Part shown: piece after piece, positions 13,727 through 21,257 of the stretch
Numbering within the stretch: the first letter of the stretch is position 1
Layout: each line of letters starts with the position of its first letter
IMG/VR virus record: IMGVR_UViG_3300034523_000297
Coordinates: 1-60,067 of that record
Direction: 5' to 3' (one strand)
DNA: 60,067 nucleotides
DNA from: a virus
Taxonomy: Duplodnaviria > Caudoviricetes
Made by a program: the position numbers and the translations under genes
Notes under the pieces: model-generated
The model's input: only the letters and a program-made list of their open reading frames with translations
What the model was told of the DNA's origin: nothing
Databases searched by the model: none

Positions 13727-14086
13727 TTAACGGTCAGCCACACCATCAATCAGTGTGTTGACATCAGTTCGAACGGAATTCATGCAAGAGTCGTAATAGC
13801 GCTTTGGGTCTGCCCTTCCTGCGGCTGAGTCAGAGACGGCCAGAGCAATCAGCGCCGCCCCCTTTTTGTCGCCGGAAAGGCCTGACGCTTCGAGGATTTT
13901 CCCTTCCTGCACGCCGTTCCTCGCAGCCAAGACCGCACCTTGATAGACAGCCTGGCTATTGTGGCAATACGAGGCTGCGTTGAAGGCCGCATCAGCAGCC
14001 GCCTTCAGCTCATCCCGACTACTGCCATCCGCCAGTATCGGCATCGATACCGGAAATAGAGCTAACAAAACTAACGCCTTGCGCAT
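13727..14086 (-). CDS. Secreted hypothetical moron protein
   Basis: Signal peptide MRKALVLLALFPVSMPILA; two Cys. Confidence 0.6.
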   Translation of the reverse strand: MRKALVLLALFPVSMPILADGSSRDELKAAADAAFNAASYCHNSQAVYQGAVLAARNGVQEGKILEASGLSGDKKGAALIALAVSDSAAGRADPKRYYDSCMNSVRTDVNTLIDGVADR

Positions 14087-14165
14087 GAGGCATCCCCGAT
14101 CCATTGAGTTCGAGGAAATCTACCATCATCGGCACGATGCGCCAAAACCCCGCCAATGCAGGGTG

Positions 14166-14191
14166 AAAAAGAAAAGGCACCCGAAGGTGCC
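14166..14191 (-). terminator. Intrinsic terminator closing the RAMP/repeat operon
   Basis: Minus strand GGCACC-TTCG-GGTGCC followed by TTTTCTTTTT. Confidence 0.85.
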
Positions 14192-14210
14192 CTCTCGATG
14201 CCGTTTACGG

Positions 14211-14290
14211 CCCATGCCACACCGAGCCATACCATGCCCAGGCGTGCCGCTGCCTGCCAAACCTAACCACGCCGTAACGCGCCAAGTCAT
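14211..14290 (-). repeat. Period-5 (NN-GGY)n array, 16 units
   Basis: Minus strand: AT GAC TT GGC GC GTT AC GGC GT GGT TA GGT TT GGC AG GCA GC GGC AC GCC TG GGC AT GGT AT GGC TC GGT GT GGC AT GGG; every triplet starts with G, 11 of 16 are GGY. Confidence 0.93.
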
Positions 14291-14338
14291 CGGTGCTTAT
14301 GCACCGCAATGTCTCCTCGCAGAAGAGACATTACGCTG
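14211..14338 (-). ncRNA. Putative guide-like RNA unit 2 (hairpin leader + 16-unit NN-GGY array)
   Basis: Leader CGTAATGTCTCTTC-TGC-GAGGAGACATTGCG then GGTGC-ATAA-GCACC, directly followed by the array. Confidence 0.7.
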
Positions 14339-14345
14339 TTTTCAG

Positions 14346-14410
14346 CCCCTGCCGAACCATGCCGGGCCTGACCTTGCCTCACCTAACCCGGGCTAGTCGC
14401 AGCTCGACAT
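14346..14410 (-). repeat. Period-5 (NN-GGY)n array, 13 units
   Basis: Minus strand: AT GTC GA GCT GC GAC TA GCC CG GGT TA GGT GA GGC AA GGT CA GGC CC GGC AT GGT TC GGC AG GGG; 8 consecutive GGY units. Confidence 0.92.
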
Positions 14411-14460
14411 CATGATGCTTTCGCACCGCAATGCCCTCTCATAGAAAGGGCATTACGCTA
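14346..14460 (-). ncRNA. Putative guide-like RNA unit 1 (hairpin leader + 13-unit NN-GGY array)
   Basis: Leader CGTAATGCCCTTTC-TAT-GAGAGGGCATTGCG then GGTGC-GAAA-GCATC; begins right after the stop codon at 14462. Confidence 0.7.
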
Positions 14461-14461
14461 C

Positions 14462-14920
14462 TCAGCGCAAGGCCTTCGTCGCCATCCCGCGCAGCGCGGA
14501 GAACTTAGCCACCTGGTCCAGGTTTTCGCGCCTCTGATCGTCGGTCAGCTCCGTGATCCGCAGATTTCTGAGCTTCTGCCCGGCCCCGCGAAACACCTTG
14601 CGAACACCACGACCCAACTCCTCCATGGCCACGCCAGTCTGCTCATGCGGCGGAACCCAACGGTACCCACGCCCTCGCACCGACTGCAGGCAGACCTGGT
14701 GATCGCGCAGAAGCTCAGCCTTGAACGCCTCCACGTTTGCCAGCCATTCGAACTGCCGGTCGCGGAACTGCTCGACCGTGAGCGACTTGGATTCGCCCAT
14801 GGAGGGCATGCCGAATCGGGCTTCAAGCCAGTCGTGCCCCACAAGGTCGCCGTACTTGAAAGCTTTGAGGAAGTCTTCGACCGCCTGCTTGTGGCTTGGA
14901 TACTTTGTCACCTCAGACAT
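14462..14920 (-). CDS. Partner protein of the RAMP-like gene (possible winged-helix nucleic-acid-binding protein)
   Basis: 152 aa from MSEVTKY; overlaps the RAMP gene stop by 8 nt; LQSVRGRGYR wing-like motif; basic C-terminus. Confidence 0.7.
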   Translation of the reverse strand: MSEVTKYPSHKQAVEDFLKAFKYGDLVGHDWLEARFGMPSMGESKSLTVEQFRDRQFEWLANVEAFKAELLRDHQVCLQSVRGRGYRWVPPHEQTGVAMEELGRGVRKVFRGAGQKLRNLRITELTDDQRRENLDQVAKFSALRGMATKALR

Positions 14921-15488
14921 AGGCCACCTCAAATCGACCGAAGCGTGGGCGGTACTCGCAGACGCCGATCAGCTTGCCGGAGTCCTCGATGGCCTTCTTC
15001 ACCTCCTGAAGGTCAAGCACATCGGCATTGATCGCCACCTCAAGCTGGCAGGCCCAATCGAGGAAGATCGGCCGGTATCGCATGATCTTTGCCTGGCCAA
15101 CCTTCACGCCTCGGCAGTCGACGAAGCGCTGATCCTCCCAAAGCGACTCCGGCGTGTCCGGTCCATTGAATTCCAGGCTGGCCCTGTCGGTCATCACAAG
15201 CGCGCCGCGCTTCCAATGGGTTCCCAGCTTCTGCAGCTTGGCGCCAGCAAGGAAGGTGGCGTCAAAGTTTGCCCCCGGAATGTGGATGCCTGCTCGCTCG
15301 TCGAAGTAAACGCCTGCAATGAACTCGGACTTGGCGATGGCGACATGATCATCATCGACTTTTTTCCGCTTGCTGGTTAGCTCGCGGTGCGCCTTCGTCG
15401 CCGGGTGCAGCGGGTTGGCCAGCTTGTCGCTGTGCATCATCAATGGCGAAGTGCCCTTGATGCTCAGGGTAAGAAGCTCCATGGTCAT
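14913..15488 (-). CDS. Stand-alone Cas7/RAMP-superfamily-like protein
   Basis: N-terminal strand LSIKGTSPLMMH, IPGANF (cf. RAMP IPGSS), R-P-F-W strand, C-terminal Gly-rich loop GKLIGVCEYRPRFGRFEV. Confidence 0.75.
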   Translation of the reverse strand: MTMELLTLSIKGTSPLMMHSDKLANPLHPATKAHRELTSKRKKVDDDHVAIAKSEFIAGVYFDERAGIHIPGANFDATFLAGAKLQKLGTHWKRGALVMTDRASLEFNGPDTPESLWEDQRFVDCRGVKVGQAKIMRYRPIFLDWACQLEVAINADVLDLQEVKKAIEDSGKLIGVCEYRPRFGRFEVAYV

Positions 15489-16369
15489 TTCACCGCCCTC
15501 CGCGCCATGTACTCGAACCGACCGCGAAGGTTCACCACTGCTGCCATCAAGAACTCGAACATGTCCGGGGTCGATACTGGGATATCGCCTGGTGACATGA
15601 CCATCCCCTTGATGAGCTCGCGCGTTGACAGCACGCAGGCATCGTCAGCCACTTCCTCCACTCGCTGATCGCCCTTGTGGTCGAACGAGACCAGATAACG
15701 CTTTTGTGGGCCACCAACGATTTGGACCTGTTCACGCTTCGGTAAAAACTCACCCTCAACCACCGCATAGGCTGCAATGAAGTTCCGGGCGCCATCCAGG
15801 TGCTCTGCCGGGATATCAGCTGCGGATCGGACGCCGAACGCCGCATGCACCTGAGACCAGATCTTTGCCGTCGCGCGCCGCTGCATCTGAACAGGCAGCG
15901 CAGCTACCTTGCCCTTAACGATGGCGCCGAGCATGTGAAATCCATCGGTGCCAATGGTCTGACCGAGGAGGGTCATTGATTGGTTTGCCTCGCGATGATT
16001 CACTGCGCGCCCCTGATTCCAGTAGGACCACAGTGCGTCGTCGCATTCGTTCTGGTAGTCAATCACGCCATCGCGTAGTTCGGGGCGAACCTTGCTTGCA
16101 TGAATCGACATTAACCAGCCCGCGAGCTTACGCAGAGGCAGGCATGCCATTTCGTACTGCTTACCATCGGCACCAGTTGTGGTGATCATCACCATAACTG
16201 AATTGAACCGGCCTCCCTGGAGCTTTGTATGCTGGCTCTTCCAATCCAAGCCCATGCCTTCGACCACTGGCTTCATTGGAATGAATGGTTGTCCGTCTCG
16301 CTCGACGAGCAAAAGCTTCGCTGAACGGAACGGGATGACACTGGATGCAGCTGTGCTATTATCACTCAT
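15485..16369 (-). CDS. Phage antirepressor (P22 Ant N-terminal domain)
   Basis: PMKPVVEGMGLDWKSQ, CLPLRKLAGWL and YQNECDDALW motifs; start could extend to 16462. Confidence 0.9.
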   Translation of the reverse strand: MSDNSTAASSVIPFRSAKLLLVERDGQPFIPMKPVVEGMGLDWKSQHTKLQGGRFNSVMVMITTTGADGKQYEMACLPLRKLAGWLMSIHASKVRPELRDGVIDYQNECDDALWSYWNQGRAVNHREANQSMTLLGQTIGTDGFHMLGAIVKGKVAALPVQMQRRATAKIWSQVHAAFGVRSAADIPAEHLDGARNFIAAYAVVEGEFLPKREQVQIVGGPQKRYLVSFDHKGDQRVEEVADDACVLSTRELIKGMVMSPGDIPVSTPDMFEFLMAAVVNLRGRFEYMARRAVK

Positions 16370-16439
16370 GACGTTGTTTTCCTGATCGATGACTGCGTTG
16401 ATTCCCAAAGCCCTGGCCGTTGGCGCGACCGGGGCTTTT

Positions 16440-16607
16440 TCATGCCCGTTGTTTTTGCTCATCCTGCATCTCCTGCTCCAAGGACTTCCTCAGCCGAAAA
16501 ACGATTTCGCCGCTCAGGCTGCGGCCGTTCTCCTCCGCACGCTGCTCCAGCTTTTGCCGCAGCGTGCAAAGCATCCGTACTGCCGTAGTGATTTTCTCGC
16601 TTCCCAT
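16440..16607 (-). CDS. Arc-family ribbon-helix-helix repressor (55 aa, not in the ORF track)
   Basis: Own translation: MGSEKITTAVRMLCTLRQKLEQRAEENGRSLSGEIVFRLRKSLEQEMQDEQKQRA; typical A..NGRSL..EI..RL..SL motif. Confidence 0.85.
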   Translation of the reverse strand: MGSEKITTAVRMLCTLRQKLEQRAEENGRSLSGEIVFRLRKSLEQEMQDEQKQRA

Positions 16608-16612
16608 TACCC

Positions 16613-16669
16613 TGCTTCCTTTGCTTCATTTACAAGGACGATTCTTGCTTCCTTTGCTTCATTTGTCAA
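16613..16669 (-). promoter_or_regulatory. Sigma70 promoter of the arc-ant-RAMP operon with tandem operator repeats
   Basis: Minus strand TTGACA(16669-16664)-17 bp-AAGAAT(16646-16641); 19-bp direct repeat TGCTTCCTTTGCTTCATTT at 16613 and 16646. Confidence 0.75.
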
Positions 16670-16746: not shown

Positions 16747-17235
16747 ATGACTGATCTCTTCGCTGACAAGCTAATCCGACTCCGCACGCAAAAAGGCCTT
16801 ACACAGAGGGACCTTGCCGCGATGGCCGGCCTTTCCTGGTCGCAGATATCGAAATACGAGTCGGGAAAATCGAAGCCCCGCAAGAAAGCTTTATGGGCGC
16901 TGGAGGAGGCGCTTGACTGTCCCGGTGAATTGTCCAGTCAGATAGAAGCCTCGGCAGACGGTACCCATGCAGCCAGCCCCACAATGCAAGATCGCCTAGT
17001 GGAAGCACTCCACTCGCTCGACCCCGAAATCCAAAAGAGATGGAAGGAAGAAGCTAGAGAAAAAGGGCTCAGCTATGAGGATTACATCTTCCGCAGTGTC
17101 AAAGCGAACATGCTGGAGATGTCGCGCGATGCCGAAAAACAGGGTGATAAGAAGACAGCTAACGTCTTGCGGATAGTGGCTCTTGCGCTTTTCCGGTGGA
17201 TGGAAGATCCGGGTGAATCCGCCGAAGATGACTAA
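16747..17235 (+). CDS. XRE-family HTH regulator, divergent from arc
   Basis: LIRLRTQKGLTQRDLA...ISKYESGKSKP. Confidence 0.9.
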   Translation: MTDLFADKLIRLRTQKGLTQRDLAAMAGLSWSQISKYESGKSKPRKKALWALEEALDCPGELSSQIEASADGTHAASPTMQDRLVEALHSLDPEIQKRWKEEAREKGLSYEDYIFRSVKANMLEMSRDAEKQGDKKTANVLRIVALALFRWMEDPGESAEDD

Positions 17236-20093: not shown

Positions 20094-21257
20094 TTACGCG
20101 GTGACCGTGATCGCCGAAGTCGCGGTTTTGGTCGGGTCCGACACGCTAGTGGCGGTGATGACTGCCGAGCCAGCAGCAACGCCGGTGACCAGGCCAGACG
20201 AGTTGACAGTGGCAATCGACGGGTCCGAGCTGCCCCAGGTAACTTCCTGAGAAGCGCCAGATGGCAGCGCAGATGCTGACAACTGGCGGGTCGCGGCTAC
20301 TGCAATCGAAGCGGTAGACGGGGTGACTGACACGCTGGTGACGGGCACGAACGGCACGCGGGTGATGGTCGGGGCCTGCTTGGCAACGGTCCAGTTCAAG
20401 GTCACTTCGATCAGGTCACGCTTACCACCATTCGGCAGATCGCCATCGACCTCAATCGCCGGGAAGGACAGCTCATAGCGGTTGCCCAGGCTATCAGTGA
20501 TCGGGAACTCGGCCGCGATAGTTTTCCGGGTGAACGTGTTCTTCCAGATTTGCCAGGCGCGGCTCGACCAGGCCAGGGTGATGGTGCCGGTGATGGCTGC
20601 CTCAGTCGCGATCTGCGCCCCCGGCCCGAGCTTGCCGCTGCCAATGCAGCGCTGCGCCTGGAGGCTGTTGTCCAGATTTACGGTAAGCGCCGAAACGCAC
20701 GCCACACCTTCCAGGCTCTGCCCGTCGACCGAGATGCTACCAATGTTCAAATTGCTCATGAACGGCGTGGTTGTAGGCGGGCTTATGGTGCCTACGGTAT
20801 TGGTGTCGCCGTCGGCATAGTCCAGGCCAGCCATGGTGAAGGTGGCGGTGATCTTGCCGTCGGACGGGATGTCCAGGGCGAAGACCGAAACGTGCATGCC
20901 GCGGAACAAGGTGTACACGCTCACGTCGTTGAAGTTTTTCGCGACACTGAATGTCCGTCGAGTGCTGCCTACGGTCAGAACGTCATCAGTCCAGGTTCCG
21001 TAGAAGGCCGCCTCCAGCAGCTTATCGAAGGTGCCATAGGACAGCTCGCCAACCAGATCGCCTTGAATATTGGCGCTGGATACGACCGAACCCTGGCTGA
21101 TCCGTGAATCGGTGATCTCATCACTAACCTGAGTGCTCACTGTCGGCGACAGGGTGTTACCGGTTAGGCGCAAGGTATCCCAGGCCCCAGTGGCTGGGGT
21201 TACACCCGGAGAGAGCTCAGTGATCATGTAACTTGTGACTTGGGCGCCGCTGCTCAT
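20094..21257 (-). CDS. Major tail tube protein with C-terminal Ig-like (Big_2) domain
   Basis: MSSGA start typical of the tube family; VTSVSVTP...VTWGSSDPSIATV Ig motif. Confidence 0.92.
   Translation of the reverse strand: MSSGAQVTSYMITELSPGVTPATGAWDTLRLTGNTLSPTVSTQVSDEITDSRISQGSVVSSANIQGDLVGELSYGTFDKLLEAAFYGTWTDDVLTVGSTRRTFSVAKNFNDVSVYTLFRGMHVSVFALDIPSDGKITATFTMAGLDYADGDTNTVGTISPPTTTPFMSNLNIGSISVDGQSLEGVACVSALTVNLDNSLQAQRCIGSGKLGPGAQIATEAAITGTITLAWSSRAWQIWKNTFTRKTIAAEFPITDSLGNRYELSFPAIEVDGDLPNGGKRDLIEVTLNWTVAKQAPTITRVPFVPVTSVSVTPSTASIAVAATRQLSASALPSGASQEVTWGSSDPSIATVNSSGLVTGVAAGSAVITATSVSDPTKTATSAITVTA

Follow-up and report, generated by a model that had tools for sequence, protein, structure and literature searches.

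Systems termed VIPR (for Viral Interference Programmable Repeat) were described in 2026 in three preprints from one laboratory (bioRxiv 10.64898/2026.04.26.720920, PMC13142463; 10.64898/2026.04.26.720927; 10.64898/2026.10.15.759431). They describe a phage-borne minimal RAMP protein, Vipr, an accessory gene, vap, and vrRNAs with 9–16 repeats, in which the GGY triplet of each repeat is bound and hidden while the NN dinucleotides, joined by one skipped base, are matched to either DNA strand; binding is stated to repress transcription without the need for a protospacer-adjacent motif, and the system was proposed in April 2026 as an ancestor of the effectors of clustered regularly interspaced short palindromic repeats (CRISPR) systems (PMC13142463). 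In the current study, a virus sequence of 60,067 nucleotides (IMG/VR record IMGVR_UViG_3300034523_000297, Caudoviricetes; this whole stretch is hereafter termed the window) was analysed, and its two GGY/NN arrays, together with the adjoining vipr and vap genes, were found to make up what is very probably a type II-like VIPR by which, judging from the sequence, a prophage would silence tail production of competing, related Pseudomonas siphophages via two vrRNAs. Since VIPR has been described in print, the locus belongs to an already known kind and the classification of the system is unchanged by the findings in the window; what they provide is an independent, purely computational confirmation of the VIPR code on a natural Pseudomonas prophage, in which the gap length, either-strand use and wobble skipping emerge from unbiased scans.

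The likeness to type II VIPR, as the preprints portray it for SUSP1 and the P. fulva clade, extends to a homologous Vipr, the presence of both vipr and vap, GGY/NN vrRNAs (here of 12 and 15 units), tandem arrays separated by structured elements, a skip of 1 nt, use of either strand, wobble skipping, targets in other Pseudomonas prophages and, for some sister guides, matches to other vipr genes. The locus differs in that both guides appear to aim at a structural gene, that of the major tail protein (at its ribosome-binding site and start codon and within its coding body), whereas targets of the P. fulva clade are stated to be 'primarily' lysis-lysogeny regulators (PMC13142463, whose data S3 may list tail targets). 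Further differences are a 3' element in which a mini-hairpin is followed by either a 13-bp hairpin or a terminator, where a pseudoknot is reported for SUSP1; arrays downstream of vap, where those of LESphi2 lie upstream of vipr; and four non-GGY units with matching NN, as well as relatives with 19–30 units, compared to the 9–16 repeats published. The additions made here are modest, and may be tabulated in data S3/S4 of the discovery preprint: tail-gene targets at two sites, target-matching non-GGY units, co-variation of guide and target, and relatives of 19–30 units. They include a concrete natural target pair in a rival major tail gene, one member being a 35-bp site at its start and the other lying inside the gene.

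By the account of the preprints, VIPR shares with class 1 CRISPR-Cas (Cas7) a RAMP polymer on a guide RNA, a thumb that flips bases at a fixed period, and base pairing with the target. It differs in its period of 5 with three bases hidden and one target base in three skipped, as opposed to a period of 6 with one base flipped, and in that the guide information is interleaved within the repeat and not placed in a spacer. Tandem Repeats Finder and a GGYNN caller returned no other repeat family in the region, no dedicated CRISPR/cas scan having been made.

Two older systems are also relevant. TRAP binds (G/U)AG-NN repeats whose triplets lie 2–3 spacer bases apart, each being bound by one subunit of the oligomer; no information resides in the spacers, and the RNA serves as a regulated leader as opposed to a guide. 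The arrays in the window share the spacing of triplets by 2 bases, and differ in that their spacers specify DNA targets. The immI region of P22 (mnt, arc, ant, sar) is an antirepressor cassette with small repressors that is located among late/tail genes, with a non-coding RNA nearby; the cassette in the window adds vipr, vap and vrRNAs, and its RNA would be a guide array as opposed to an antisense of ant.

Vipr and the GGY/NN arrays

A phmmer search against PDB chains matched the 191-aa product of vipr to 36pp_D ('SUSP1 Vipr protein', E 6.3e-43), the alignment running from residue 3 to 189 of the window protein (187 of 191 residues) and from 1 to 188 of 36pp_D, at approximately 39% identity. 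The residues of SUSP1 Vipr that are described as recognising G1, G2 and Y3 or contacting DNA (10.64898/2026.04.26.720927) correspond to H17→H19, R138→R139, D177→E178, W178→Y179, R179→R180, R39→R41, K82→K84 and K33→R35 in the window, that is, five of these eight RNA/DNA-contact residues are identical and three are conservatively replaced. Both vipr (phrog_4652) and vap (phrog_5926) fall in PHROGs of unknown function, and searches of Pfam, NCBIfam and PADLOC yielded no match for either. Relatives of Vipr were detected by tblastn in 132 phage records, mostly SUSP-like phages of Escherichia, Salmonella and Shigella; in addition, relatives with 70–76% identity and an adjoining Vap were observed in five records (L051–L055) titled Pelagibacterium, Pusillimonas, Rhodoferax, Achromobacter and Comamonas, and the Vipr family therefore reaches beyond Pseudomonas.

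The two arrays have a period of 5 and lie on the minus strand at 14408–14349 (array 1) and 14288–14214 (array 2). They were the only calls made by the GGYNN caller when both strands of the whole 60,067-base window were scanned, and are therefore not a chance feature. Array 1 consists of four degenerate units (14408–14389; GTC-GA, GCT-GC, GAC-TA and GCC-CG) and eight perfect GGY-NN units (14388–14349) followed by GGG, while array 2 has a GAC scaffold in the first of its 15 units, three further imperfect scaffolds (GTT, GCA, GCC) and likewise a GGG end; a count of GGNNN runs gave nine perfect units in one run, and runs of four and six in array 2. The initial annotation, made from the sequence alone, had listed the NN series of both arrays, and had noted that each opens with ATG.C and closes with GGG and that the triplets of array 1 are degenerate at the 5' end. 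A parse made here reproduced the NN series exactly, the openings (ATGTC and ATGAC) and the GGG ends were located on the minus strand, and the degeneracy corresponds to the four non-GGY scaffolds. Tandem Repeats Finder reported no period-5 array, its lone row in the region being a stretch of 19 bases with a period of 10 and a score of 31, an absence in keeping with a lack of homogenisation among the units. No Rfam family reached its gathering score across the whole window, the weak rows at the arrays being terminator look-alikes below that score, and the RNA region had no blastn match among 50,697 phage records.

Scanning IMG/VR with the 156-aa Vap as query gave 42 loci, to which two phages (Medea1 and LESphi2) and 10 loci from genomes were added, making a set of 54. 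The vipr and vap genes are adjacent in all 54, with an overlap of 1–4 bases or a gap of at most 20 bases, and arrays accompany the pair in most of the set; in 42 of the 42 IMG/VR loci period-5 GG arrays are present directly downstream. In LESphi2 (L045 3003–3307) three arrays are found upstream of vipr instead, with a sigma-factor gene on their other side, and a 502-aa open reading frame (ORF) directly follows vap. Among 71 unique arrays (822 units) position 1 was G in 99% and position 2 in 86% of units, position 3 was C/T in 98%, and the entropies of positions 4 and 5 were 1.95 and 1.98 bits; because the caller selects for GGY, only the NN entropy counts as an independent result. The NN series differ among loci with Vap 90–96% identical, so that the comparison of homologous loci advocated in the initial annotation revealed hypervariable NN and a retained GGY as opposed to NN positions as invariant as GGY. 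Its claim that a conserved triplet scaffold with differing NN is unlike a slippage repeat was borne out, the NN being near-random across the 71 arrays.

The structured elements around the arrays appear to be maintained as well. The two-hairpin element that precedes array 1 is also present 5' of arrays in related loci, and RNAalifold predicted 17 pairs from 36 inter-array elements, with compensatory changes at 13 of these. Every array is followed by a mini-hairpin, whose stem varies in a compensatory manner (GCUG/CAGC in 57, GCCG/CGGC in 28 and GCUG/CGGC in one of 86 copies), and next to it comes the 13-bp hairpin, which co-varies. It is against this background that a slippage microsatellite, a G-quadruplex tract or a DNA-level repeat without an RNA role has to be judged. 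GG at every fifth base could in principle form two-tier quadruplexes, as judged from the spacing and not from the output of a tool, but homogenisation of the units is absent, each of the 74 arrays called in 44 loci (the 42 from IMG/VR and the two phage records) lies beside vipr-vap on the strand of the genes and none on the opposite strand, the flanking hairpins carry compensatory changes, a terminator closes the unit, and a third position restricted to C/T is needless for a quadruplex; we regard this explanation as scarcely credible.

Arrays of 19 to 29–30 units were observed in several relatives (L013 and L014 3030–3174, L012 3029–3123, L019–L022 3021–3115 and L036 3089–3188), and no target above shuffled controls was found for them within the fetched DNA of the related loci.

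Target of array 1 and guides of related loci

The NN of the eight perfect-scaffold units of array 1, joined by one wildcard base and matched exactly, retrieved 50 stretches from IMG/VR, 41 of which lie at one homologous site. This site, TACGCCTATCGA-TAGGAGAAACACCCCATGTCCAG, covers the last part of a terminator together with the ribosome-binding site and ATG that belong to a 389-aa gene, on contigs of 58–64% G+C, while the remaining nine matches are scattered over contigs of 32–42% G+C. The four upstream NN of array 1, which were absent from the query, matched the site at no fewer than five of eight positions in all 41 (at least six of eight in 31 of the 50), and over its full length array 1 matches 23 of 24 positions in 20 loci, 22 in 11 and 21 in 10. 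The degenerate, non-GGY units account for seven matches in eight NN positions, which suggests that such units may still guide. The gapped search with 0–3 wildcards that the initial annotation had put forward gave enrichment for array 1 at the 1-nt gap only: gaps of 0, 2 and 3 nt produced 17, 13 and 8 scattered matches, respectively, and at least five of eight upstream NN were matched in 0/17, 41/50, 0/13 and 0/8 of the matches at gaps of 0, 1, 2 and 3 nt. In an unselected set of 201 Pseudomonas species genomes, the pattern of all 12 NN was found with at most three mismatches in five genomes, always at the start of the tail gene, and the reversed control of the pattern in none of the 201. When array targets were sought in the window, and likewise in the first 300 kb of related loci, scores stayed at the null level at every skip.

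The targeted 389-aa gene belongs to phrog_290, which PHROGs labels 'minor tail protein', and lies downstream of the tail-terminator gene (phrog_179); on account of that position and of a C-terminal Ig domain it is read here as the major tail/tube protein. When compared with named phages by blastn it gave only partial matches, of 67–84% identity, to Klebsiella and Stenotrophomonas phages. The strand matched by array 1 is the sense strand of this rival gene, and as array 1 therefore shares the polarity of the mRNA it cannot pair with it, which argues for a DNA target.

A clade-wide scan compared 63 unique guides of at least nine units with 709 kb of fetched DNA in which arrays were masked, a guide being scored when its best match was more than 1 above the top score reached in 20 shuffles. 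Such matches were obtained for none of the 63 guides at skip 0, 19 at skip 1, none at skip 2 and five at skip 3, all matches of the latter five being unmasked sister arrays. The targets comprised the start and the body of the tail gene, the tape-measure gene of a rival, genes J and I of Medea1, vipr of other loci and the tail gene of the window, which suggests that structural tail genes, besides regulators, are common VIPR targets in the clade. Guide and target co-vary between relatives: a sister guide from a P. laurentiana prophage (L047) differs from array 1 in one unit, TG for CG, and matches the TGA variant of the site.

Several individual matches may be recorded here. Coding sequence of vipr in other loci (L002 2032–2063 and L023 2029–2063) is matched by guides from L009 and L034 at 21/22 and 21/24 positions; guides from L002, L003, L024 and L046 converge on one tape-measure site (L009 4113–4159, phrog_24) with up to 22/22; and guides from L023, L031, L043 and L048 match the Medea1 tail genes J and I (L044 6706–6737 and 5413–5441). 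A guide of L006 (3021–3070) matches 20818–20846 (+) of the window, within its own tail gene, at 18/20 positions with a 1-nt skip, and the window phage is therefore itself the predicted target of a relative.

A TRAP-like, protein-binding RNA had been the initial reading of the arrays and was dropped on the match of Vipr to PDB 36pp. In the form of a decoy or sponge RNA, whose GGY would be bound by protein and whose NN would be mere spacers, it accords with the geometry of triplets 2 bases apart, a strict scaffold and free spacers. We nevertheless hold it to be highly improbable, as the NN series of array 1 singles out one site by agreeing with it at 23 of 24 positions, four units outside the query included, 19 of the 63 sister guides likewise find targets, at the 1-nt skip only, and guide and target change together in L047.

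If the locus is a VIPR, Vipr protomers would polymerise along each vrRNA, one per pentanucleotide, burying GGY and presenting NN, and the NN pairs would base-pair with DNA that is read as NNxNNx, every third base being skipped. An R-loop triplex would then form and the Vipr filament would block transcription, by analogy with the published systems. On this model vrRNA 1 would read the sense strand across the terminator, the ribosome-binding site and the ATG in front of the rival major tail allele, while vrRNA 2 would read a conserved coding stretch of the same rival gene in antisense, the skipped bases falling at codon wobble positions. The guides are thus predicted to shut down rival tail production, the prophage's own tail allele not being matched by vrRNA 1.

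Array 2 and the two tail alleles

Array 2 agrees with the antisense strand of the targeted rival tail gene at 22 of 30 NN positions, approximately 880 bases into the gene, where the peptide TDIIQVELNYT is encoded. Of the 22 NN positions in its central 11 units, 21 (95%) are matched, the exception being unit 8, where the target always has TC and the guide GC; its first three units at the 5' end do not fit, nor does its last. A 21-base pattern drawn from the centre found 49 stretches in IMG/VR, all at this site in the body of the rival tail gene, and the skipped positions vary as codon wobble bases do. On the sequence, array 2 is clearly related to the rival major tail gene.

The tail gene of the window is 39.5% identical to the targeted allele (tblastn), both being phrog_290. 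Array 1 matches only 9 of 24 positions at the aligned self site (21284–21250), its best score anywhere in the window being 16/24 (67%); with a maximum of 73% for array 2, self-targeting at 80% or more is absent from the window. The supplement of PMC13142463 gives 80% NN identity as the cut-off for targets and reports no self-targeting at or above this value in the P. fulva clade. Measured against this cut-off at a 1-nt skip, array 1 lies well above it (96%) and array 2 is borderline. The claim of the initial annotation that each array is a separate guide with a gapped NN target is supported (23/24 at skip 1 for array 1), with the qualification that array 2 attains only 73% over its full length.

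A number of observations weigh against the assignment to VIPR or limit its reach. Most concern array 2: its full-length identity of 22/30 (22/28 without the last unit) is below the cut-off; its 21-base central pattern was designed after the match had been seen, and the NN of the retrieved stretches are fixed by the query; the full 14-NN pattern was found with at most three mismatches in none of 4 and none of 401 Pseudomonas genomes; a 19-base pattern from its 5' part had no match in IMG/VR; its eight 3' NN, matched exactly, gave 18 scattered stretches in IMG/VR with 1–8 of 14 upstream positions matched, a spread around the 3.5 that chance would give; and the self site at 20380–20423 also scores 22/30, the same as the rival site. 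The tail-gene loci, moreover, were picked by their 1-skip matches, so that a comparison of skips among them is biased; the unbiased tests of skip are the IMG/VR gap scans, the shuffle scan of the clade and the scan of 201 genomes. Placing the locus in type II and in the P. fulva clade, which is defined by more than 90% Vipr identity in the supplement of PMC13142463, would rest on the descriptions in the papers. At the protein level, three residues of SUSP1 Vipr, E71, M72 and K88, are not kept in the window, where A73, N74 and T90 stand in their place. The AlphaFold model of Vap (mean predicted local distance difference test score 76.9) gave no Foldseek match at E ≤0.001, and VIA Z values of 5.0–6.8 for Vap residues 1–93 against winged-helix domains fall below the tool's caution line of 8; the weak Foldseek rows, mostly OmpR/PhoB, GntR and MarR winged helices, suggest an N-terminal winged-helix-like domain followed by a C-terminal helical hairpin.

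The equal scores raise the alternative that vrRNA 2 is not directed at rivals: it would either act on the major tail gene of its own prophage to tune it, or be a guide in decay, or orphaned, with an unsampled tail allele as its true target. Consistent with this are the 8/8 match of its four 5' units at the self site, the imperfect scaffolds in four of its 15 units and the failure to find a full-length match in 401 Pseudomonas genomes or in partial-pattern scans of IMG/VR. The self mismatches are, however, spread over eight of the 15 units, as opposed to the single central block of 21/22 in the rival; homology of the two alleles accounts for part of the self match; and the P. fulva clade is without self-targeting at the published cut-off, as far as the supplement sets out. 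We consider this alternative unlikely, and favour a guide directed at a rival tail allele.

The simplest reading of the mosaic of self and rival matches in array 2 is an unsampled third tail allele (...QVALNYTVAK...), and a perfect target would be a tail allele encoding ...TDIIQVALNYTVAK.... The mosaic, self-like at the 5' end and rival-like in the centre, would also fit guides derived from tail-gene sequence by copying or recombination, which would be a primitive form of guide renewal. VIPR could be viewed, in what is an improbable extension of the favoured reading, as allele-level warfare over tail genes among homologous prophages whose guides hit each other's major tail, tape-measure, J and vipr genes, in which non-GGY units guide and the mosaic of vrRNA 2 arose by guide copying or recombination. 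The last unit before GGG (e.g. 14218–14214) warrants separate mention, as its 3'-most NN, often AT, is fully matched in only four of 19 significant guide-target pairs; this NN probably belongs to the conserved tail (..AUGGGCYG) and not to the guide.

Organisation of the cassette

The coordinates of the features are collected in Table 1. The two vrRNAs are modules of one build, each having a long hairpin, a short hairpin, a GGY-NN run and a mini-hairpin GGGCYG-NAAA-CRGC. The leader of array 1 begins 2 bases past the vap stop codon, the element between the arrays may serve vrRNA 1 as its tail, vrRNA 2 as its leader, or do both, and the terminator-like site after array 2 has 11 pairs.

Table 1. 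Positions of the genes and RNA elements in and around the putative VIPR locus of the window
Feature	Position	Strand	Basis
vipr, 191-aa RAMP-family Vipr	14913..15488	-	phmmer vs PDB 36pp_D; phrog_4652
vap, accessory protein of 152–156 aa, likely start ATG at 14920	14462..14932	-	phrog_5926
Leader before array 1: long hairpin (GCGUAAUGCCCUUUC...GAGAGGGCAUUGC) and short hairpin (GGUGCGAAAGCAUC)	14414..14460	-	sequence
vrRNA 1 guide region, 12 units: GA GC TA CG TA GA AA CA CC AT TC AG	14349..14408	-	
Inter-array element: mini-hairpin GGGCUG-AAAA-CAGC (14348–14335), 13-bp hairpin (14334–14306), short hairpin (14305–14292)	14292..14348	-	
vrRNA 2 guide region, 15 units: TT GC AC GT TA TT AG GC AC TG AT AT TC GT AT	14214..14288	-	
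Terminal mini-hairpin GGGCCG-UAAA-CGGC (14213–14200) and intrinsic terminator (stem 14196–14171, T-run)	14165..14213	-	
Candidate sigma-70-like promoter TTGACA-17-AAGAAT, upstream of ant	16641..16669	-	consensus scan, 10/12 matches
Antirepressor (ant; P22 Ant N-terminal domain), first gene of the cassette	15485..16462	-	Pfam PF10547, E 3e-46
Helix-turn-helix (HTH) regulator, divergent from ant	16747..17235	+	HTH_3, E 3e-15
Major tail protein gene of the window, 387 aa	20094..21257	-	phrog_290, E 2e-114

The cassette of HTH regulator, Ant, vipr, vap, two vrRNAs and terminator looks like an immI-type module inserted among Pseudomonas prophage tail genes. In the window it is positioned upstream of the tape-measure gene, and in phage Medea1 a cassette with the order HTH, Arc, Ant, vipr, vap is located between tail genes K and I. 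Co-transcription of ant, vipr, vap and the vrRNAs may proceed from the promoter-like site, which is a weak consensus match: the scan of the region returned two sites where 1.4 were expected from shuffles.

Contigs of two public sequencing runs (X10 and X11, probably DNA) carry vipr, vap and both arrays in identical form over 14100–14972. Their similarity to the window stops at 15491, just upstream of the vipr start, and the vipr-vap-vrRNA block is therefore joined to another upstream gene elsewhere. From two raw RNA runs (X21 and X24) no reads were placed, which says nothing either way on expression. Between the vrRNA terminator and the tape-measure gene lies a 125-aa ORF (13727–14104, minus strand) without a family match, whose N-terminus resembles a signal peptide when judged by eye; because related loci hold differing small membrane proteins in this slot, it appears to be a site of variable cargo.

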